Positions 37,327 through 54,980 of a DNA stretch of 64,000 nucleotides are shown piece after piece. The translations under genes and the position numbers were made by a program. The number at the start of each line of letters is the position of its first letter. Position 1 is the stretch's first letter. The notes under the pieces were generated by a model. It worked only from the letters and a program-made list of their open reading frames with translations, searched no databases and was not told the DNA's origin. The DNA comes from Microgenomates group bacterium (GTDB lineage: Bacteria > Patescibacteriota > Microgenomatia > UBA10105 > UBA927), in assembly GCA_049287205.1 (NCBI GenBank), contig JBAQFJ010000001.1:447041-511040 (forward strand), in the 5' to 3' direction.

Positions 37327-37476
37327 AACAAAATATATAATCCGAGTTGATTTAAGCCAATAGTATGCGATTTCGCCAAGTTACTCAAGAGTACAATCTT
37401 TGCTCAAAAATATGTGCTCTAAGAATGCGAAGATTTATAGAACTGGATTAGCTATTAGCCTCAGTCTTCCCCAAAA

Positions 37477-38460
37477 CTAAATATGATTCATTAACGTATG
37501 ATGTTCTTGAAGTATTAAATTTAAGTTTTCTTGATTCATATTTCTATCAAAACCTCTAATAAGATAGTAATTATTTTTCCCTATTCTAAATTTGTTATTC
37601 ATTGTGATAGACCTATTGCTCATTATTCTTTTCAGCATTTTAAGCCATTTTTTCTCATATCGATATTTAATTGACCTATGAATAGTATTTCCAATTAAAT
37701 CCGGTAACAATAACACAGGCTCATTCTGTTCGTTAGAAATCTTCAAATTTCGGAATACTTTATGACCATCTAATACACTTCTTCCTTCGAACATAATTGA
37801 GTGCTTTAATTCAAAAGGATGTTTTATATTTCTCAGTTCCTGTGGAGAAAAAATTTTGAATTCTGGATTTAAATGATTTGTTGTGAGAATTAACATCTGA
37901 TTTAAGATAGTCTTAAAATTTTCAGATTTGGTTTGGGTGTCAATTATATGATTAAGATCCCAACTGTCGTTAGCTTTATAAATATGTATAAAATCAAATT
38001 GGTAATATTGCATCCATTCTCTATAAAGTTCGTAAATAAGCATAAATTTAGAAAAATCTGCGTTAGACATAGCATTTAATCTCCTTGCCATTAACTCCAA
38101 TTCGTCAATTAAACTCTTATGACCATTATTTATTTTTAACGAGTCAATAGATTCTTTAATTAGTCTAACTTGACCGTTACGTTGATATTTTACCAATTCG
38201 TCAATTCCAAACTTTAAATCAAATAATAACGAAGTGTATTTAATCTCATATTTTGTTCCAATATATTTAAGAATTTTTTCTCTATTGCCATCATCGATTG
38301 TTTTACCTTTTATATCACTCCAACCATTTGGATAAAGAGCATCCATTAATGACCTAAATTTTCGCCATTCATTGTCTGTAATTGTAACAAGTGTCACAAT
38401 TCCGTATTCAAGATCTTTGCCTTCTCTAAAACTTCCTGTTTCGTCAATTGCTATGTACAT
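37477..38460 (-). CDS. DUF3800-like protein (N-terminal I-D-E-T-G motif)
   Basis: 327 aa; N-terminus MYIAIDETGSF matches my recollection of the DUF3800 hallmark (Y/F-I-D-E-S/T-G); very AT-rich gene. Confidence 0.45.
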   Translation of the reverse strand: MYIAIDETGSFREGKDLEYGIVTLVTITDNEWRKFRSLMDALYPNGWSDIKGKTIDDGNREKILKYIGTKYEIKYTSLLFDLKFGIDELVKYQRNGQVRLIKESIDSLKINNGHKSLIDELELMARRLNAMSNADFSKFMLIYELYREWMQYYQFDFIHIYKANDSWDLNHIIDTQTKSENFKTILNQMLILTTNHLNPEFKIFSPQELRNIKHPFELKHSIMFEGRSVLDGHKVFRNLKISNEQNEPVLLLPDLIGNTIHRSIKYRYEKKWLKMLKRIMSNRSITMNNKFRIGKNNYYLIRGFDRNMNQENLNLILQEHHTLMNHI

Positions 38461-38552
38461 AATTTCATTTTATCAAACTTCAATGCATATATATTTTCTA
38501 TCTCTTATTACACCCGAGATATGGACATAGAGTGATATAATGACCTATAAGT

Positions 38553-39797
38553 ATGTCTTCCAAAGTTAACTACCTAATTATCTTCGATACAAATGCACTT
38601 TTTGGTGACCCAATACGATCTAGTGTTCTTAATTTTATCGATACATATTCAAAAAATACGCGGTTCGTACTAACATTTGCTATACCAGAAATAGTCAAAA
38701 AAGAACTTACAAAACATACTTTAAAGAAGTTCGAGAAAGCACTACATCAATATCAAGAATCAGCTAAGGAAATTGAATTCCTAACAAACCACAAATTTAG
38801 AGATCTTCATCTAGATCAAAAAGCTGCATTAAATAGACTTAATCGTTTATTCAAAAAGAAAAATATAAAAATTCTTCCCACTCCATACAAAAAAATTAAT
38901 TGGGAAGCTATAGTCGACAAAGCAGTAGAATATATACCCCCTTTTGAAGAAGGAAAAGAAAAAGGATTTAAAGATTCATTAATTATCGAAACTATTTTGT
39001 CACACATGAAAAAACTAGATAAAGATACTTATGTGGCGTTTATATTCATTGACAATGTGTTAAACGAATTTATAAAAACATTAACTCAAACCCACAAACA
39101 ACTCCATGTCTATCAATCTACTGATGACTTTGAAACGTATTTGAAACTACAACTGTTAGACTCTGATAAGGAATTTATTGAAAAAATCAAAGCAGAAGCA
39201 GAGTTCACATTTTCTGACGAAACTAACCCTAATGCACTATTCTGGAAAGAAAACCTACGAACTAAAATTTATAGCACATATAGGGAGATAATAGAAAATC
39301 CATATTATGCAAATAAAAAGGCCTTATTGGGAGCCACTACATACGGTGAAACCCTTGTTCCAATAGATTCAGGTAGATATACAATCGCAAATCCAACATT
39401 TATAGAACGTGACGAGAATTCTATTTTAACTTGGAGATCGTCTGTAATTTTTGAAAGGGCTTATTGGAGAAGTAACTATATTCCAATACATACACACATT
39501 TCTGAACGATCACATATCGCTCAACATTCACATGCGCCTCAAACAACACCTGAAGTAATGTACTATAACGTAGAATTTGAGGTTATTTGGAAATGCCAGA
39601 TGAATGAAGAAGAAAAAATTACTGATGCGATGATTGACAATATCAAGTTCATAAATAATTGGAGAAATGAAAGAGATAGTTATACAAACTTATATTTTGA
39701 CCGTTCTGCTAATACCTCATTACCAACGACAACGTCAGGTCAGGGAACTATACCAATCTCTAGCTTAAATGATATTATAAACGATAAATCTTATTAG
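38553..39797 (+). CDS. PIN-like nuclease-domain protein with large C-terminal unknown domain
   Basis: 414 aa; N-terminus YLIIFDTNALFGD (PIN strand-1 Asp), further acidic residues at AIPEIVKKE and FIFIDNVL consistent with a PIN catalytic tetrad; diverges from the DUF3800 gene across a 92-nt gap. Confidence 0.45.
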   Translation: MSSKVNYLIIFDTNALFGDPIRSSVLNFIDTYSKNTRFVLTFAIPEIVKKELTKHTLKKFEKALHQYQESAKEIEFLTNHKFRDLHLDQKAALNRLNRLFKKKNIKILPTPYKKINWEAIVDKAVEYIPPFEEGKEKGFKDSLIIETILSHMKKLDKDTYVAFIFIDNVLNEFIKTLTQTHKQLHVYQSTDDFETYLKLQLLDSDKEFIEKIKAEAEFTFSDETNPNALFWKENLRTKIYSTYREIIENPYYANKKALLGATTYGETLVPIDSGRYTIANPTFIERDENSILTWRSSVIFERAYWRSNYIPIHTHISERSHIAQHSHAPQTTPEVMYYNVEFEVIWKCQMNEEEKITDAMIDNIKFINNWRNERDSYTNLYFDRSANTSLPTTTSGQGTIPISSLNDIINDKSY

Positions 39798-39804
39798 ATA
39801 CTCT

Positions 39805-40218
39805 ATGACTAATCAAACAAGAAAAATGAGAGAAACATTGACTAAGTTATTCGGTAATAATAATACTTTACCACCAATCATTTCAGGCGCCGCATCATTA
39901 ACTTTACTTTGGAAAATAATTGCATCGCCAGAAATAAATAACATAAGATTTTATTCGTCTTTAACTATTTTATTAATTTTTTTTATATCGTCCTGTCTTT
40001 TATACTATTATTTAAGAAAACTCGAGAAAGACAAAGATGTTTATCTTATTAGCAGCATAGGAAAAATTGTTGAAGATGTATTTCGCCACTATGGACAGAT
40101 GATGGCTGAAAAAAACGCAGATCGTGCAGATGCAAAAAGCATGAATGACGTTATGAAAACGATTGTAGATTTAATAGGACGAATGAAAAATTTATCGAAT
40201 AAAAAATATAAAGATTAA
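39805..40218 (+). CDS. small two-TM membrane protein co-transcribed with the PIN-like gene
   Basis: 137 aa; hydrophobic segments AASLTLLWKIIA and LTILLIFFISSCLLYYYL, charged C-terminal tail; 8-nt gap after the PIN-like gene. Confidence 0.45.
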   Translation: MTNQTRKMRETLTKLFGNNNTLPPIISGAASLTLLWKIIASPEINNIRFYSSLTILLIFFISSCLLYYYLRKLEKDKDVYLISSIGKIVEDVFRHYGQMMAEKNADRADAKSMNDVMKTIVDLIGRMKNLSNKKYKD

Positions 40219-40619
40219 TGGGCTCAAAAAATTGTCAACGTCGTACAATCATAGATGTACGTGTTGTAGAAATCTGCTTTAATTAGTTTTACAATTTAAT
40301 AATGGTTCATCGTTTATACGCAGGCATAATATATGCAACACTATCAAAAATTTGTTTTGATGCAGCATGGATAATGTTTCTTTATTTTAAATAGCATCAA
40401 GAAAACCTTTAAAAGGTATGTCTGCATATATTTTCACGCACTAATTTTCCCCAAAGACCCCTGAAGCTGCGAGACTCTGACACTTTAAAATACGATGTAT
40501 ACTAAATCTGTATGCACTTCAAACGAAAGAAACCAAAAAGTCAGGTGAAAAACGTCAGAAGTAATTTACGATGGCTCGGCAACAGCAAACGACGGCTTAC
40601 CAAACGGGATAAACAACAA

Positions 40620-40925
40620 TTACTCCACTTCACTGAACCGTTTTCCATTTATAGCCGCACGAATACCAGTACATAACCCCTGACCTGCAACATTAACTGT
40701 ACAACAATTCGGTTGATTTGGTGTTTCATGCAATTCACAACTATTTCCTGTTAAAAACACACAATCATCAGGCATTATATATCCTCCCTCTTTGGGAGTA
40801 AGCGTCACGCCTTTTTGTTGAAACATAGCAACTTCAGACGAACTCAAAAAGAAAATCACCTGCAAATCAACATGTTTACGACAGCAATGTGCGTTGCAAT
40901 CTCTAAGACATTCAATATTAGCCAT
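40620..40925 (-). CDS. Cys-rich YkgJ/UPF0153-like putative Zn/Fe-S binding protein
   Basis: 101 aa; CLRDCNAHCC at the N-terminus and a second Cys cluster (CELHETPNQPNCCTVNVAGQGLC); TATAAT box ~11 nt upstream of the ATG suggests a leaderless transcript. Confidence 0.5.
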   Translation of the reverse strand: MANIECLRDCNAHCCRKHVDLQVIFFLSSSEVAMFQQKGVTLTPKEGGYIMPDDCVFLTGNSCELHETPNQPNCCTVNVAGQGLCTGIRAAINGKRFSEVE

Positions 40926-40982
40926 AAAACGCTTTATTATAATCCATACCTAAGAAAATGAACATAATATCCGTATTTGGAG

Positions 40983-41020
40983 AGGGTCAGACCCTTGAGA
41001 TCAAAGATTTAACCTATAGC
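40983..41020. repeat. structured repeat copy 1: AGGGTCAGACCCT-N17-CCTATAGC
   Basis: Exact 13-mer palindrome AGGGTC-A-GACCCT at 40983-40995 and CCTATAGC at 41013-41020; the same composite recurs at 42868-42905. Confidence 0.6.
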
Positions 41021-41153
41021 GGTAAATATCATAGATACATAATTCTGTAGATACAAAAACACCCTCACTATTCTCCTTTTTCAGGAAAACGACCAAAATG
41101 GTCACGTGAGGGCATCTTTGCAGTATTTACATTATTACGGAATTTTCAACTTT

Positions 41154-41549
41154 TTATTTCTTATCTTCAGAAGATGCCAATACAAACGGTTGTACAATAC
41201 CATCAATTTCCCATTGCATAGCTTCATTGTATTGCCGTCGGCTGGCAGCTGTTTTGATTTCTCCGTTTTCATGGAGCAGAACTAAAAAATCATGTCGCAT
41301 TTGCTTTTTTTGGGCTTCTGAGAACTCGATAACTTCCTCATCTTTGTGCAGATACTCGATAAAGCTTTGCTCAAAAAATATTTCGAGATCTTTATCAGAC
41401 AGACGGGCATATTCCTCATCGTTCTCAACGAGTTCGCTGAAACATACAATGAATTCCAACCATCGCATGTCAATCTCATCCTCAGCTTTGAGCTTCAACG
41501 CTCTTCTTAAAGCCATCTTACATATATTCGCAATTCGATCCTCTGGCAT
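41154..41549 (-). CDS. hypothetical acidic protein
   Basis: 131 aa; no recognisable motif; clean ORF with an upstream partner 33 nt away. Confidence 0.4.
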   Translation of the reverse strand: MPEDRIANICKMALRRALKLKAEDEIDMRWLEFIVCFSELVENDEEYARLSDKDLEIFFEQSFIEYLHKDEEVIEFSEAQKKQMRHDFLVLLHENGEIKTAASRRQYNEAMQWEIDGIVQPFVLASSEDKK

Positions 41550-41581
41550 AATTTCCCTCGTCTTTGAATGAAGTTACCCGA

Positions 41582-42019
41582 TTATTTCCACAACGCGTCA
41601 ACTTGCTCGCAAAGCCACTTCCTTCGATCATACGCATTGTCCGCCATTTGAAGAAGCCGCATACCACAATCGTAAAATGTGTCAGGATAATGCCACATTT
41701 TTTCCATTATGTATGCATTTGTATACAATTTTTCTCCTAGAGCTCCTTCTTCAATCTCGGTCAAATCTGCCGCCTCGAAGACTTGCTCGAACAGCAATTT
41801 TCTTGCAAATTCCTGACCTTCGTCTTCCGTCAGCACCCGAGCAGGTCCTTCACATACAAGCCATCCGTTTTTCAATGTTGCGGATACTGATCCCCAGTGC
41901 ATTACTTCCTTCGGTGCAATAATCGTGCCGATTTCATTTTTTTCGTTATAACGCATTTGAACAACAACTATTTTTCCATTTAGGGAATATTTCCTGTTCA
42001 CAAAAAACTTCATTTCCAT
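41582..42019 (-). CDS. hypothetical protein
   Basis: 145 aa; no recognisable motif. Confidence 0.4.
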   Translation of the reverse strand: MEMKFFVNRKYSLNGKIVVVQMRYNEKNEIGTIIAPKEVMHWGSVSATLKNGWLVCEGPARVLTEDEGQEFARKLLFEQVFEAADLTEIEEGALGEKLYTNAYIMEKMWHYPDTFYDCGMRLLQMADNAYDRRKWLCEQVDALWK

Positions 42020-42782: not shown

Positions 42783-42812
42783 CACATTTTCCTTTCACGC
42801 ACACACATCGAG

Positions 42813-42856
42813 GGGTAGCCTCAATATTGTTTTCATTGAGGCTGCCCTAATTTTTT
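42813..42856 (+). terminator. rho-independent terminator
   Basis: 13-bp stem GGGTAGCCTCAAT / ATTGAGGCTGCCC (one U-G), 9-nt loop, followed by TAATTTTTT. Confidence 0.65.
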
Positions 42857-42867
42857 CTCACAGCTTC

Positions 42868-42905
42868 AGGGTCAGACCCTGGAAGCGGAAGCTATACCCT
42901 ATAGC
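42868..42905. repeat. structured repeat copy 2: AGGGTCAGACCCT-N17-CCTATAGC
   Basis: Exact 13-mer at 42868-42880, 17-nt spacer, CCTATAGC at 42898-42905; embedded in a longer imperfect palindrome CAGCTTCAGGGTC-A-GACCCTGGAAGC. Confidence 0.6.
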
Positions 42906-43125
42906 ATTGTAATACCCGTACTCTTTTGCTATACTGAGCCTCTTCCTGACCAAAAAAGTTGTTGCGCCTTATGCGGTACAAACAACCTTATACGTCAGGT
43001 TTTTCGCACATTACCATACCGATTAACAACTTCTCTTCATATGAAGGAGTGAATAGTGCCTTGAATACAATATTTTCTTGCATTCAGTGAGCTATTCATT
43101 TTTATCATGGAAGGGAGGGAAAGAA

Positions 43126-43623
43126 ATGAGCATATACATTGCTATTCTTAACAATTTTATCCAAAGAACAGAAACAGATGTGTTGCTTGTTCCATTTTAT
43201 GGAACAAAAAGAATCTGGATCAATGAAACAGCCAATCAGCTAATTCACCAATCCTCAGGACAGCACTTTAAACGAAAACTTGTAGCATATGTAAAAGAGA
43301 CCATCATTTTACCAGGAGAATTCATTTCATTTTCTAAAGAAAAACTACTTTGCTTTCGCGATAATGTCGCTCAGTCGATAACGGCGACCATACCAATTCT
43401 GTTGTATGAAGCACTAAATAGAAATTATCATCATATCGTTATACCGCTGCTCCGCTCGCACATACTCAGTGTGCAAAACTCGGCAGAAGAAATGGTAGGA
43501 GGTATTCAACATTTTTTTCATTTTGTACAACAGCATATCAACATTACGATTGTTCTTGGCAGTTCGCAAATCAGTTGTCTTGATTTTCTGCAAGAACAAG
43601 CAGTACGTGTAAACAAAACGTAA
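43126..43623 (+). CDS. paralog A of a three-member family; divergent macro-like/Rossmann-like domain protein
   Basis: 165 aa; GGAGG RBS 6 nt upstream. Shares TDVLLVPFYG, ...LIHQSSG, HIVIPLLRSHILSV...EEM and ITIVLGS motifs with paralogs B and C; motif order resembles the macro domain but lacks its Gly-rich loop. Confidence 0.5.
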   Translation: MSIYIAILNNFIQRTETDVLLVPFYGTKRIWINETANQLIHQSSGQHFKRKLVAYVKETIILPGEFISFSKEKLLCFRDNVAQSITATIPILLYEALNRNYHHIVIPLLRSHILSVQNSAEEMVGGIQHFFHFVQQHINITIVLGSSQISCLDFLQEQAVRVNKT

Positions 43624-43696
43624 ACGGAAGCACGCAACATACAGAGTCATCTTGTAAAAGGAGGTGTAGCAGGTAAAAAGTACGGACGTAGTTATA

Positions 43697-44296
43697 ATGC
43701 TTTTTGACAGTAATGACGTTACATATATCTCTTATATCGAGGAAAACGTGACAAACATTATAGCTAAAACATACAGTGTCATAGGAAACGCAACAAATGC
43801 GATTATTGTTGACACAATTGTCGCACTGATCCACCCAATCTCAGGTGCCTACACAGAACTCACCGGCAATATTATTCGCGGCACCTATGAAATATTTCAT
43901 ACGCTCTTGCAACAACAGCTACAAGACCATCCGCCGAAAAGTGACGAGTGTTTCTTTGTACAACAGCCCCATCGGCCTGAACGGACATTTGACAATGTTC
44001 TGTATGTCGCAGATGACGGATCACTTCCCTTGTCTACATTTACCGAACGCATTCTCTGTCAACTTGTTCAACATGGTAGTTCTATTGTTGCTATACCGTT
44101 ATTACGGTATCAACAAACATCCGTGAAGGAAACGACCGAAGCCATGCTCAACGGCATACGGCGTTTTCAAGATACCAATAATGCACCGCTTCATATTTAC
44201 CTGACACTCGGTAAACGTGATTCCGTTGCATGGAAGTTGCTTCATGCGGAAACAAAATACTGCGGGGAGTGGAGTAACGGACAATATATTGCGTAA
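43697..44296 (+). CDS. paralog B of the same family
   Basis: 199 aa; motifs NAIIVDTIVALIHPISG, SSIVAIPLLRYQQTSVKETTEAM, LHIYLTLG align with A and C. Confidence 0.5.
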   Translation: MLFDSNDVTYISYIEENVTNIIAKTYSVIGNATNAIIVDTIVALIHPISGAYTELTGNIIRGTYEIFHTLLQQQLQDHPPKSDECFFVQQPHRPERTFDNVLYVADDGSLPLSTFTERILCQLVQHGSSIVAIPLLRYQQTSVKETTEAMLNGIRRFQDTNNAPLHIYLTLGKRDSVAWKLLHAETKYCGEWSNGQYIA

Positions 44297-44364
44297 CACG
44301 GCGCTAGTTTTTTGTTCAAAAATTTTACATCTCATCCAATATACGATAGGGAGAATACAAGATA

Positions 44365-44907
44365 ATGGAAATAAAGATGTTCTACTACCTGAAAGAAAAA
44401 AATGCAAAGCCGTTACAGACGGACGTGTTGGTTATTCCGTTCGGTTCCAACGCGCGATCGCTCGCACTTCTTGCACCGACCAGTGAATGGGTACGAGAAA
44501 ATAAAGCATACGCGCATTTGATCAGCAGCGACGAGGTCGTAAAAAAGAGTGCGACGTTTGTAGACTCTACCCCCGTTGCCAAATTCACGTTTTTTATCAA
44601 ACACCTCAGCGGATCGAGCATCCACGCGCTGGTAACCACGTGTTTGGAATTTGCAATTGAAAAGAACTGCGCAATGATCGACATGCCGTTGTTCACTGCA
44701 AACGGATTCAAAGCAATGGATGACAGGGTAATCATGAAAACGATGATTAAAGCATGTAATGAATTTGCAAAAAAACATGAACATGATGCGGCATCGCTTG
44801 AAATCTCGTTTATTCTTGACACAACGCAGCAAGACCTTGCTGTATTTTGCGCTTCCAAAGGAATTCAATATTCAGGAAGACAGGAACAAGGACAATTCAA
44901 AAGATAA
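44365..44907 (+). CDS. paralog C of the same family
   Basis: 180 aa; motifs QTDVLVIPFGS, AMIDMPLFTANGFKAMDDRV, EISFILDTT align with A and B. Confidence 0.5.
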   Translation: MEIKMFYYLKEKNAKPLQTDVLVIPFGSNARSLALLAPTSEWVRENKAYAHLISSDEVVKKSATFVDSTPVAKFTFFIKHLSGSSIHALVTTCLEFAIEKNCAMIDMPLFTANGFKAMDDRVIMKTMIKACNEFAKKHEHDAASLEISFILDTTQQDLAVFCASKGIQYSGRQEQGQFKR

Positions 44908-44971: not shown

Positions 44972-45019
44972 GCTGCTTTTAAAGCAGAACCGACCCAACC
45001 GTTGATTCTGCTTTTTTTT
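44972..45019 (+). terminator. tandem-hairpin rho-independent terminator
   Basis: CTGCTTT-TAA-AAGCAG then GCAGAA...TTCTGC followed by TTTTTTTT. Confidence 0.55.
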
Positions 45020-45032
45020 GGGAAAAAAATTC

Positions 45033-45596
45033 TTATTTGCGTTTTCCGAGTGCAATTGCCAAAACCACTGTAGCGTTTGCAAGAAAAATGTAGAATGGAT
45101 AACTTAATAATACAATGTCAAATTTTCCAACTGAAAACATAGAAAATATGCCGCCTATCGCGATAAGAAGCCACGCACTACTTGTTTCACTTCCCGGATC
45201 CTGATACGCTTTTTCCACAGTAAGATATGTGCCAAGCGCATCAATGCCAATGACAAGATATAGTGCTATAGCCGCTTCTTGTGTAAGATACCATGCAATA
45301 AGTCCTGCTGCAGCGGCAAGCAGCGTATGATAATCCTTTTTAGAAAACCCTCCGACACCAAACCATAATGATAGAAAAAATATAAGTATAACTGACAGTG
45401 TATCTATACCAGTAAGCCACAAAGAAAATGTTGCACCTTTCGCAAATTGTGAAAAAAATGAAATACCACCAAGCACGCTATAAATAAACCAAGTCGACCG
45501 TTGCGGTTTCGTTGTTTTTCGAAATATATCACGAAGATACGGAAATGTTCCTAATAAAACGAAGATGCCTGATAGATAGCCAAAAAGTTGCGTCAT
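45033..45596 (-). CDS. polytopic membrane protein of unknown function
   Basis: ~187 aa; 5-6 TM helices. Start trimmed to the internal Met (MTQLFGYLSG) because the track's N-terminal extension overlaps tRNA-Val. Confidence 0.5.
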   Translation of the reverse strand: MTQLFGYLSGIFVLLGTFPYLRDIFRKTTKPQRSTWFIYSVLGGISFFSQFAKGATFSLWLTGIDTLSVILIFFLSLWFGVGGFSKKDYHTLLAAAAGLIAWYLTQEAAIALYLVIGIDALGTYLTVEKAYQDPGSETSSAWLLIAIGGIFSMFSVGKFDIVLLSYPFYIFLANATVVLAIALGKRK

Positions 45597-45608
45597 AAAA
45601 TTTTCTTG

Positions 45609-45681
45609 TGGGCGTATCAGGACTTGAACCTGAGACCTTTTCAATGTCAATGAAACGCTCTACCAGCTGAGCTATACGCCC
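45609..45681 (-). tRNA. tRNA-Val (anticodon GAC)
   Basis: Reverse complement folds: acceptor GGGCGTA/TACGCCC, D-arm GCTCAGCTGGTAGAGC, anticodon stem TTTCA/TGAAA with loop TTGACAT, T-loop TTCAAGT; CCA not encoded. Confidence 0.85.
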
Positions 45682-53504: not shown

Positions 53505-53533
53505 ATTATACCCTATAGTAACAAAAGTGGCAA
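53505..53533 (-). promoter_or_regulatory. near-consensus sigma70 promoter TTGCCA-17-TATAAT with a ~185-nt leader before ORF 53057-53320
   Basis: Minus-strand hexamers at plus coordinates 53528-53533 and 53505-53510, spacing 17; the -10 box overlaps the 12-mer TATACCCTATAG that also occurs at 42893-42904. Confidence 0.45.
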
Positions 53534-53540
53534 AAATCCG

Positions 53541-54980
53541 TCATTGAACGATTCTGTAGAGCCTTGCTCCACCGACTGCGTTTTGAAGTATAATTTTATC
53601 GGCTTTTTCCATATTCCCGATCGCGCTGTTCCAATTTTCATTGGATTCAAGCGTCTGTGTGAGCCATTGATCGGGTCTCGTATCAACAACCAGATAGTCA
53701 GGATGTCCACCAAAATCCAACCACCAGCAAAGTTTTTGTCCGCACGGCATTTCATCAATATCATGCTGCCTCGGCCACACCAGATATATTTCTTTTCTAT
53801 GCGACAAATGAGGAACAAGATTTTGCTGTGCTGCAACAGATGCGTTTTTAGGAACGAGTGTGAGCAACTGTCGAGTATTATTCATCCATGGTTCTTCTTT
53901 CCAGTATTCAGACTTTGTCAATTTATTTAACGGAAAATGAAACACATATTGCAAGAGCATAGAAACACAAAGAAGAATAACTGAAACATATACAACGCGA
54001 ATTTTTCTTGCGCGAAGAAATGCCAACGTATCAATGGTTCCAAGAACCAAAAATGGAGCAAGAATTGCTCGATGATGCATAAACGGACTCCACATTCTGG
54101 CAAATTCCGGTCCCGTGACAAAATACTGAGACAAATCCATGAGAACTGCAATCAGGCTGCCTGGAGAAAAAACGGGAAAAAAGGAAAACGTTGAATAACT
54201 GTACAACCACACCTGTCTCTTTTCCTCGCTGTTAAATAATTGGGTAAACGCATCACCGATGCTTGTCGGCAATTGTGGCCAGTATTGATACCCGACAGGA
54301 GAAAACAGGGCAGATATTTTTACGGCAAGTAAACTATACGAAACGCCCACTATTCCGACGAGGAGTGCTTTTTTCCACTGACTCTTACGGAAGAAAAATA
54401 TGGCTGCCAGTCCTGCGATGGCTATTCCCATATTTTCCTGCGTTGCTAGGCCGACAACAAGCATGATCCAAAACAACACTTTTTTATTATATTCCCAAAA
54501 ATAGGCAAGCCAAGAAATAATGGCAACACCGATGATAATCGGATGGAAATCAAAATACACGCCAAATTGAATGCCGTAAAATAAACTGTACATGATGCCC
54601 ACACAAAAGGCTGAAAAAGAAGAAGACAAACGTTTTTTTGCAATCAAAAATATGGGGATGGCGGACGTTACGATGACAAGCGCCTGAACAATAAGCAGCA
54701 TACGCACGTTGTCCCACAAATAAAATAGGATGCCAAATACAGGCATGGTCAATACAAAGTGGTCACCGAACAAAATACGATCTTTAATTGTATTGTAGGG
54801 CCCCAGCATATGGCCGAATTTCCACACCGCTTGATCAAACAATCCCAAATCAAATGCGCCTGATTGAAAATGATTATGACGAATGATAGAAAGCGTGCTA
54901 TAGAGAATGGTAAGGATAAGACAATACAAAAGAAAAAGAATAAATGAATGCTTTTGAAATACATTCTGAAGCGATTTCAT
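53541..54980 (-). CDS. DUF2079-like polytopic membrane protein (putative GT-C glycosyltransferase)
   Basis: 479 aa; ~12 TM helices; first loop GAFDLGLFDQAVW resembles the DUF2079 signature loop. Confidence 0.55.
   Translation of the reverse strand: MKSLQNVFQKHSFILFLLYCLILTILYSTLSIIRHNHFQSGAFDLGLFDQAVWKFGHMLGPYNTIKDRILFGDHFVLTMPVFGILFYLWDNVRMLLIVQALVIVTSAIPIFLIAKKRLSSSFSAFCVGIMYSLFYGIQFGVYFDFHPIIIGVAIISWLAYFWEYNKKVLFWIMLVVGLATQENMGIAIAGLAAIFFFRKSQWKKALLVGIVGVSYSLLAVKISALFSPVGYQYWPQLPTSIGDAFTQLFNSEEKRQVWLYSYSTFSFFPVFSPGSLIAVLMDLSQYFVTGPEFARMWSPFMHHRAILAPFLVLGTIDTLAFLRARKIRVVYVSVILLCVSMLLQYVFHFPLNKLTKSEYWKEEPWMNNTRQLLTLVPKNASVAAQQNLVPHLSHRKEIYLVWPRQHDIDEMPCGQKLCWWLDFGGHPDYLVVDTRPDQWLTQTLESNENWNSAIGNMEKADKIILQNAVGGARLYRIVQ

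Follow-up and report, generated by a model that had tools for sequence, protein, structure and literature searches.

In macrodomains ADP-ribose is held by an Asp at the adenine, an Asn, a catalytic loop rich in Gly and a diphosphate loop that includes a G-[AV]-[FY] patch (PMC7050489). SUD-N and SUD-M of the SARS-unique domain (nsp3 Mac2 and Mac3) are tandem, non-enzymatic macro folds which do not bind ADP-ribose but bind nucleic acids and proteins (PMC10326071). The locus described here lies in a stretch of 64,000 nucleotides (the window) from a Microgenomates group bacterium (Patescibacteriota; assembly GCA_049287205.1, contig JBAQFJ010000001.1, positions 447,041 to 511,040, forward strand), in which positions 43126-44907 are filled by three consecutive + strand open reading frames (ORFs), designated A, B and C, each annotated as "hypothetical" under its locus tag. 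These genes were found to encode diverged relatives of macrodomains, and the locus as a whole is probably, though by no means certainly, an operon gated by a leader and encoding three pseudo-macrodomain proteins, whose ancestor was a stand-alone bacterial macrodomain (of the A6 type defined below).

AlphaFold2 models were obtained for B (pLDDT 76.7, pTM 0.78) and C (pLDDT 80.4, pTM 0.82) from input alignments of eight sequences, comprising only A, B, C and close orthologs; as no recognised macrodomain was included, known macrodomains could not have biased the models. Beta and alpha elements alternate in both, and the top 50 matches to each in a Foldseek search of PDB were macrodomains or scaffolds built on a macrodomain, among them PARP14 macro 3, YmdB, PARP9 macro 2, PARP15 macro 2, macroH2A, SauMacro and GDAP2 (top matches at E about 1e-6, TM-score 0.65-0.72). 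The best TM-score for C was to PARP9 macro 2 (0.72), and its list also held the leucine-aminopeptidase N-domain, a member of this CATH superfamily as well. Macrodomain proteins were likewise among the best matches in a viral structure library, where they were weaker than in PDB. The models place B and C in the CATH macrodomain superfamily 3.40.220.10 as defined (PMC7050489), and for A the same fold is inferred from a 157-column profile match to macrodomains (below). A preliminary description of the region, made from the sequence alone, had read the proteins as macro-like or otherwise Rossmann-like; the comparison yielded macrodomains at the top rather than an unrelated, non-Rossmann fold, and no LOG/SLOG, TIR or CARF fold appeared among the top 50 matches of either model.

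A family profile of the eight sequences was searched with HMMER against 1.84 billion protein representatives and matched 133 proteins at E<=1e-3, most of them 160-200 aa in length, while some were large proteins, matched at three or four separate places. Fifty of the short matches were aligned (alignment A6) and define a divergent stand-alone macrodomain subfamily, exemplified by WP_201390460.1 of Ktedonobacter, with the motif GDIT...INS.G.WFGGVD.AI...F..VIFVVDD...PLMRTGV; 26 of the 50 members are recognised by Pfam Macro at E<=0.01. The A6 profile matched PARP14 macro 3 (2e-14), YmdB (5e-13) and Af1521 (1e-9) in PDB. Subfamily profiles, each consisting of one paralog and its few orthologs, were compared with A6 using hhalign and matched at 2.1e-25 for B (153 columns), 1.8e-12 for A (157 columns) and 7.3e-10 for C (over the C-terminal 76 columns). 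A hidden Markov model (HMM) of A6 alone matched exactly A, B and C among all ORFs of the window (A at E 1.4e-11). When the family profile was searched against PDB directly, PARP14 and PARP9 macrodomains ranked first with marginal values (E 0.011-0.07); a single-sequence PDB search with A gave no match, and nothing usable was returned for A, B or C by PADLOC, NCBIfam or PHROGs scans. The macro-like reading is supported because two independent routes, fold and sequence homology, agree, and on these alignments and models the macrodomain homology and fold of all three proteins are held with very high confidence. It was also observed that about half of the A6 members (proteins P0013-P0099) are missed by Pfam Macro at E<=0.01, and that one member, P0014 (locus L012), is located in a phage-like run of small ORFs.

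Pairwise similarity was significant for A-B and A-C by BLASTP (1e-5 and 1e-4) and by Smith-Waterman alignment (z of 7.0 and 7.1), where the observed score was reached by none of 2000 shuffles, while that between B and C was not significant by either method. Comparison of subfamily profiles with hhalign joined all three, at 2.3e-5 over 141 columns (A-B), 4e-3 over 128 columns (A-C) and 4.7e-4 over 81 columns (B-C), the last match taking in a common C-terminal Y-x-G-x-W...G-x-[FY] tail. Significant mutual similarity was thus found as previously proposed, beyond chance in pairwise alignment for A-B and A-C and through subfamily profiles for B-C. On these alignments A is the bridging member of the triplet, and the three are genuine, constrained paralogs.

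The detailed roles of the contact residues are known from Af1521, MacroD and Mac1 structures. The paralogs were aligned jointly with YmdB and PARP14 macro 3 using MAFFT, and all five canonical contact elements were found to be replaced in A, B and C. The GDIT of YmdB, which carries the adenine Asp, is GNAT in B and NNFI in A, and is lost in C; the NAAN position of the Asn is occupied by H in B of the window and by Y, Q and Q in its orthologs, by Y or S in A and by G in C. Loop 1 (GGGV-D) is AYTEL-T in B, IWINET in A and SLALLAP in C, while loop 2 (ISTGVYG) is LRYQ in B, with a 6-residue deletion, LRSHIL in A and FTANGF in C. The adenine-stacking Tyr of the last strand is G in both B and A and D in C. 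The signatures of MacroD-type hydrolases (GDIT Asp, NAAN Asn, loop 1 and loop 2) are accordingly absent from all three proteins, and degeneration is graded, running from A6 through the related proteins P0010 and P0011 to P0009, then to B and lastly to A and C. The earlier motif-by-motif mapping of A onto macrodomains was reproduced in this alignment, and the absence of the Gly-rich diphosphate loop that had been pointed out in A proved true of all three. The replacement of every canonical contact argues against ordinary ADP-ribose turnover, and the role in ADP-ribose or nucleotide-signal turnover that had been suggested gained no direct support. Judged from these residues, canonical ADP-ribose binding or hydrolysis is unlikely for B and still more so for A and C. 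The canonical ADP-ribose chemistry has probably been lost, and the proteins are best read as pseudo-macrodomains rather than hydrolases.

An orthologous triplet was found at the same chromosomal position in a second genome (L001, GCA_964609895.1), between the same flanks, with methyltransferase/glycosyltransferase genes on one side and signal peptidase/ParB genes on the other. Relative to L001, dN/dS was 0.23 for A, 0.10 for B and 0.11 for C, values which are approximate because dS is saturated. Amino-acid identity was 53%, 65% and 66%, respectively, against 97% for ParB and 89% for the signal peptidase, which indicates that A, B and C are under constraint yet fast-evolving. Word-indexed homolog searches returned 0-3 relatives per paralog, clustering of the 1.84 billion representatives at 50% left A, B and C as one cluster each, and the B family was present in a single GTDB species representative. 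Pattern scans of genomes, metagenomes and viruses gave no new loci beyond the L001 organism, and no viral relatives of A, B or C were found in IMG/VR or in GenBank phages (the latter by tblastn). Doublets were seen at three loci of more distant relatives: L005 has the B-like P0009 and, behind it, the beginning of a C-like gene, L008 has P0011 followed by a C-like gene of 185 aa with a 4-bp overlap between the two, and L016 has a C-like gene of 158 aa followed by the B-like P0008. The phyletic range of the family is very narrow; tandem macro-like paralogs are the conserved feature, while their copy number and order vary. On the three contigs examined, A6-type macrodomains are single genes in unrelated contexts.

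Two further observations concern these relatives. In locus L015 (2940-4526) the first half of the leader described below is intact, poly-C junk comes next, and the A-like and B-like genes beyond it are frameshifted; either this copy has decayed or its assembly is rich in errors. Contig CAZSTG010000003.1 (L001/L014) is labelled Gammaproteobacteria, and its synteny with the metagenome-assembled genome of the window, with ParB at 97%, indicates that the label is probably wrong.

The coordinates of the locus are given in Table 1. The three tandem ORFs of the preliminary description were recovered, while the length of 199 aa given there for B, from an ATG at 43697 (listed ORF 43697-44296), was not retained. 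B is taken to start at the GTG at 43748, which is preceded by a GAGGA Shine-Dalgarno (SD) sequence, because a length of 181-182 aa is seen in the NCBI call and in all orthologs, and because in L016 the preceding gene stops 28 nt ahead of the B-like start, too close for a longer N-terminus. Gene A is directly preceded by a GGAGGG SD; an alternative start at a TTG at 43078 (181 aa) was rejected, since this codon lies inside helix 3 of the leader and the ortholog alignment begins at the ATG.

The elements of the transcription unit are conserved: TTGnnn and TGnTATACT are kept in all five aligned loci (the window, L001, L016, L005 and L008), and the same CTGCTTTTTTTTGG tail follows C in L001. No significant structure was found in the A-B and B-C spacers. 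With a terminator on either side of the unit and none within, the three genes are taken to form one operon set apart from the upstream gene, and their co-transcription from a promoter of their own is inferred from these signals. No PDB match was obtained for the 136-aa product of the upstream gene; a link of this protein to the array beyond close relatives was considered and rejected, as hhalign against a 139-aa protein of L008 gave E 0.087 and a strong terminator lies between gene and array.

Several side observations were made on these elements. A second exact copy of TACCCTATAG was found at 53509-53518 (2 in the window versus 0.02 expected), in the spacer immediately 3' to the stop codon of a 479-aa membrane-protein gene (53541-54980, -), and the other leader blocks are not nearby. 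The contigs of L016 (1-30 and 1440-1495) and L008 (1-30 and 2150-2184) both begin and end inside the operon terminator hairpin (..AAAGCAGA...TCTGCTTTTTTTTGG), and the two ends of the L016 contig overlap by 20 identical bases. The module from promoter to terminator may be a circle or a tandem repeat in these organisms, or the assemblies may break at the hairpin; since the contig ends close on the terminator in two relatives, the leader and the paralogs, together with the terminator, might move as one small cassette. Downstream of the operon, the 5' end of ORF 45033-45650, as listed, falls within tRNA-Val(GAC) (45608-45681, -); the membrane protein encoded there therefore starts further downstream, probably at MTQLFGYL....

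The spacer of 343 bp before A, on which the preliminary description is silent, was found to share long identical blocks with L001 despite saturated synonymous sites in the flanking genes. The same blocks lie upstream of macro-like genes in L016, L005 and L008, where the first gene is a different paralog, and they are still kept in L005 and L008, in which protein identity to B is 24-30%; leader and macro-like genes occur together in 5/5 loci with upstream sequence, whichever paralog comes first. Promoter and leader span 42888-43125 of the window, 6563-6797 of L001, 70-315 of L016, 26-260 of L005 and 730-957 of L008, with the elements in the order TACCCTATAG, promoter, P1/P2 hairpin with AUGCGG and a U-run, CGCACAUUACCAUACC block, pyrimidine stretch, helix 3, U-run and SD. 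Three helices were predicted by RNAalifold in the five-locus alignment. In this structure 86.8% of cells were paired, compared to 32-46% with partners slid by 1-3 columns, and the covariation score was 0.284, compared to 0.05-0.11 for the slid controls; compensatory changes occurred in 8 pairs, a level reached by 3 of 500 shuffles. The many G.U pairs in helix 3 mean that the pairing fits the + strand only. The minimum free energy (MFE) was -54.2 kcal/mol for the leader of the window (z -3.7) and -51 kcal/mol for that of L008 (z -4.7). In the minimum-energy fold of every locus the pyrimidine stretch pairs with the SD, extending helix 3, and the unpaired probability of GGAG ranged from 0.00 to 0.28. 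No match was found among the 4227 families of Rfam 15 at gathering thresholds, and E<=10 gave chance-level matches only.

Table 1. Features of the macro-like locus and the adjoining segment, in window coordinates
Feature	Position	Strand	Description
Genes of the low-GC segment	~37400-41550		327-aa protein without assignment; 414-aa PIN_12 protein; 137-aa membrane protein
Small ORF of the low-GC segment	40620-40925	-	Cys-rich, 101 aa
Small ORF of the low-GC segment	41154-41549		131 aa; weak Csx19 and BrxA PADLOC matches
Intrinsic terminator of the upstream 136-aa gene	42812-42848	+	14-bp hairpin, -24 kcal/mol, z -6.5; U-run
Box TACCCTATAG	42895-42904	+	Just upstream of -35; identical in five aligned loci
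Sigma-70-type promoter	42907-42935	+	TTGTAA, 17-nt spacer, TATACT, extended -10 TG (promoter scan); predicted transcription start near 42942
5' leader RNA of the operon	42936-43125	+	~190 nt, conserved and structured (alignments and consensus fold)
P1	42945-42950 with 42994-42999	+	Encloses P2; followed by U5 at 43000-43004
Invariant single-stranded block CGCACAUUACCAUACCGAU	43005-43023	+	From five-locus alignment
Anti-SD CUUCUCUUC	43030-43038	+	Pyrimidine-rich
Helix 3	43049-43069 with 43079-43099	+	~21 bp (consensus fold); followed by U-run at 43100-43104
SD of the leader	43108-43118	+	Predicted to pair with anti-SD
Gene A	43126-43623	+	165 aa; WAV51_02480; degenerate macrodomain paralog
Gene B	43748-44296	+	182 aa, GTG start; WAV51_02485; paralog closest to canonical macrodomains
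Gene C	44365-44907	+	180 aa; WAV51_02490; degenerate macrodomain paralog
Operon terminator	44981-45014	+	Hairpin and U8, -14.2 kcal/mol, z -4.3

The region thus has the features of a cis-regulatory leader, namely a covarying structure on the gene strand in the 5' untranslated region (UTR) and a predicted expression platform that pairs with the SD, and it is read as a cis-acting riboregulator which would close the ribosome-binding site of the first gene by default. Co-transcription of the three genes under control of this leader is predicted with fair confidence. Other interpretations of the conserved sequence were tried and rejected. A leader peptide starting at the conserved AUGCGG would be open in the window, L001 and L008, while L016 has no start codon and L005 an early stop, and the 12-nt core of the block is invariant at all codon positions. 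Helix 3 is disfavoured as a DNA operator, as its loop varies from 7 to 17 nt and G.U pairs are present. A viral match to the leader core (L017) was a chance match within coding sequence, without the other blocks.

In the history that we propose, the three paralogs would go back to one stand-alone bacterial macrodomain, of the 'WFGGVD / VIFVVDD / PLMRTGV' kind, that was duplicated in tandem; B would have stayed nearest to this ancestor, while A and C would have degenerated further. The present locus would be one transcription unit consisting of promoter, a structured leader of ~190 nt, A, B, C and terminator. The products would most likely be non-enzymatic binding or adaptor subunits, which might act jointly as a hetero-oligomer whose binding partner is a protein, a nucleic acid or a non-canonical ligand. 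In the default fold of the leader, helix 3 together with the anti-SD:SD pairing would hide the ribosome-binding site of the first gene, and a trigger (a small molecule, a protein or possibly the operon's own gene products) would remodel it. Formation of a hetero-oligomeric module by A, B and C is suggested by their conserved adjacency, the gene overlap in L008 and the common C-terminal hairpin, and is put forward tentatively, being somewhat doubtful.

A number of points weigh against this reading. With respect to the fold, the structure models cover B and C only, and a Pfam scan of A, B and C gave no match at E<=1, so that none reaches the gathering threshold of PF01661. With respect to the site, B retains near-invariant A6 residues (the Asp of VxDD, the Arg of PLLR and one His), and one loop-1 Gly is kept in 3/4 B orthologs; B could therefore remain a ligand binder or an enzyme with an altered site, and backbone-mediated ligand binding can outlast sequence change. 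The leader analysis has a thin base of five sequences, and the genomes behind two of these are closely related; much of helix 3 reflects sequence conservation rather than covariation, and the annotated start codon of L005 is ~105 nt away from the sequestered GGAG.

The retained residues bear on the possibility that all three proteins, or B if no other, can still bind or hydrolyse ADP-ribose in a remodelled pocket, the operon serving turnover of ADP-ribose or an NAD-derived metabolite. The macro fold is kept, all three genes are under purifying selection, B matches A6 at 2e-25 while keeping near-invariant residues of the parent subfamily, and B orthologs have a GN[AI]T motif and the single loop-1 Gly. 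We nevertheless consider this quite unlikely, given the replacement of the five contact elements in all paralogs and the 6-residue deletion from loop 2 of B; the catalytic Asn position also varies as H/Y/Q/Q among B orthologs, unlike a conserved pocket residue, and no ADP-ribosyltransferase, sirtuin or TIR gene was found among nine neighbours. A ligand of another kind would be the leader itself, with the macro-like proteins binding it either in autoregulation of translation or in a stable ribonucleoprotein. Leader and genes co-occur in all five loci, the RNA blocks are far better conserved than their proteins (CAUUACCAUACC does not vary even between the loci of B and P0009, which are only 30% identical), and SUD-N/SUD-M provide a precedent in binding nucleic acids and not ADP-ribose (PMC10326071). 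Any cis-regulatory leader would co-occur likewise, however, and no RNA-binding motif was found in the proteins. With pI values of 8.6, 6.1 and 8.3 and a net charge between -3 and +2 they are hardly basic, and charge gives no support to nucleic-acid binding; we consider it unlikely that the leader is their partner.

A role in anti-phage defence or counter-defence, e.g. as sensor or sponge for a Thoeris-like ADP-ribose-derived signal, is suggested by the fast divergence relative to flanking housekeeping genes, by the position of the operon near tRNA-Val and next to a variable low-GC segment with a PIN_12 protein, and by the use of macro domains as signal sensors in type II Thoeris (PMC11204291; bioRxiv 10.1101/2024.01.03.573942). 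The segment, at ~37.4-41.5 kb, has 27-35% GC, while GC in the triplet is near average; at its position L001 has two unrelated 298-aa genes, and it is therefore a variable island. The triplet is not part of this island, since it is conserved in L001 and the island is not. PADLOC was silent on A, B and C, giving only weak Csx19 and BrxA matches in the 41154-41549 ORF, and Pfam and PADLOC searches of the nine neighbouring ORFs found no ADP-ribosyltransferase, TIR, SIR2 or transmembrane effector partner. There is likewise no adjacent DarT (DUF4433) among these nine ORFs, as in DarTG, and the DarG macro stands far down the fold list of C only; type II Thoeris is not indicated either, A, B and C being single-domain soluble proteins with no TIR neighbours. 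As relatives are also missing from IMG/VR and GenBank phages and the canonical ADP-ribose contacts are lost, the defence or anti-defence role proposed earlier has no direct support, and we regard it as very unlikely; the fast divergence is the only hint of a conflict role, to which we assign a low probability. Finally, the paralogs might be decaying duplicates with no function of their own, the upstream DNA being only a promoter or operator. The loss of canonical motifs, the very narrow range and the frameshifted copies in L015 would fit such a course, whereas the dN/dS values of 0.10-0.23, frames intact in two genomes with saturated synonymous sites, the keeping of the array in a genome of about 1 Mb and the confident fold predictions for B and C do not, and the loop of 7-17 nt, G.U pairs and compensatory changes of helix 3 fit RNA rather than a DNA operator; decay is accordingly most improbable. 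The operon of pseudo-macrodomain proteins behind a structured leader remains the reading that we favour.

Between the low-GC segment and the operon, a 145-aa protein (41582-42019, -), also present in L001, has a YTNA[YH]I..M..[HY]P motif in common with an 89-aa ORF at L007 781-1050, which adjoins the macro-like singleton P0010; the match is weak (E 4e-4 by BLASTP against a very small database).

A fold and an ancestry are hereby assigned to three hypothetical proteins which Pfam, NCBIfam, PHROGs and PADLOC miss. The keeping of a regulated three-gene array in genomes of ~1 Mb suggests that it has a real, lineage-specific role. The conserved leader RNA is in our view an unreported element, and the most testable and most novel one of the locus, which could lead to a novel kind of ligand or to an RNA-binding protein with a macro fold. 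It may even be a riboregulator class of its own and a constant companion of tandem pseudo-macrodomain genes, either as a riboswitch, possibly for an NAD- or ADP-ribose-derived metabolite, or as an RNA partner of the proteins, though we consider this rather unlikely. Recognition of an ADP moiety by RNA is known from the NAD+ class I (nadA) riboswitch. In the RNA-partner version, if true, a macrodomain lineage of the candidate phyla radiation (CPR) would have been repurposed from ADP-ribose to specific RNA recognition.

In comparison with known systems, the proteins stand closest to stand-alone bacterial macrodomains (PF01661; YmdB, Af1521, MacroD and A6), with which they share fold, a length of 160-180 aa and motif order, and the 'VxDD' and 'PLLR' signatures of A6 are kept in B. 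They differ in that the canonical contacts are replaced, the Pfam model is silent and the genes are in tandem rather than single, and B and C have a C-terminal Y-x-G-x-W...G-x-[FY] hairpin that is extra relative to A6. The leader shares with SD-sequestering leaders, i.e. translational riboswitches and ribosomal-protein leaders, its 5' UTR position, covarying helices, an invariant single-stranded block and SD pairing, while differing from known examples in having no Rfam match and only five representatives.

The best PDB matches in sequence and structure, PARP14 macro 3, PARP9 macro 2 and PARP15 macro 2, likewise belong to tandem sets of two to three diverged macrodomains, which are fused within one large eukaryotic protein, whereas A, B and C are separate bacterial genes at 9-18% identity to them; the PARP reader domains are seen in PDB complexes with ADP-ribose, while in A, B and C the binding residues are lost. 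The locus presents a bacterial case of a macrodomain serially degenerated into non-canonical paralogs, in parallel to PARP9/14 and the coronavirus SUD but as separate genes. SUD-N and SUD-M sit in a viral polyprotein, and the comparison with A, B and C is made at the level of fold and function; as tandem macro folds that have left ADP-ribose behind, they offer what is probably the best functional analogy for these pseudo-macrodomains.

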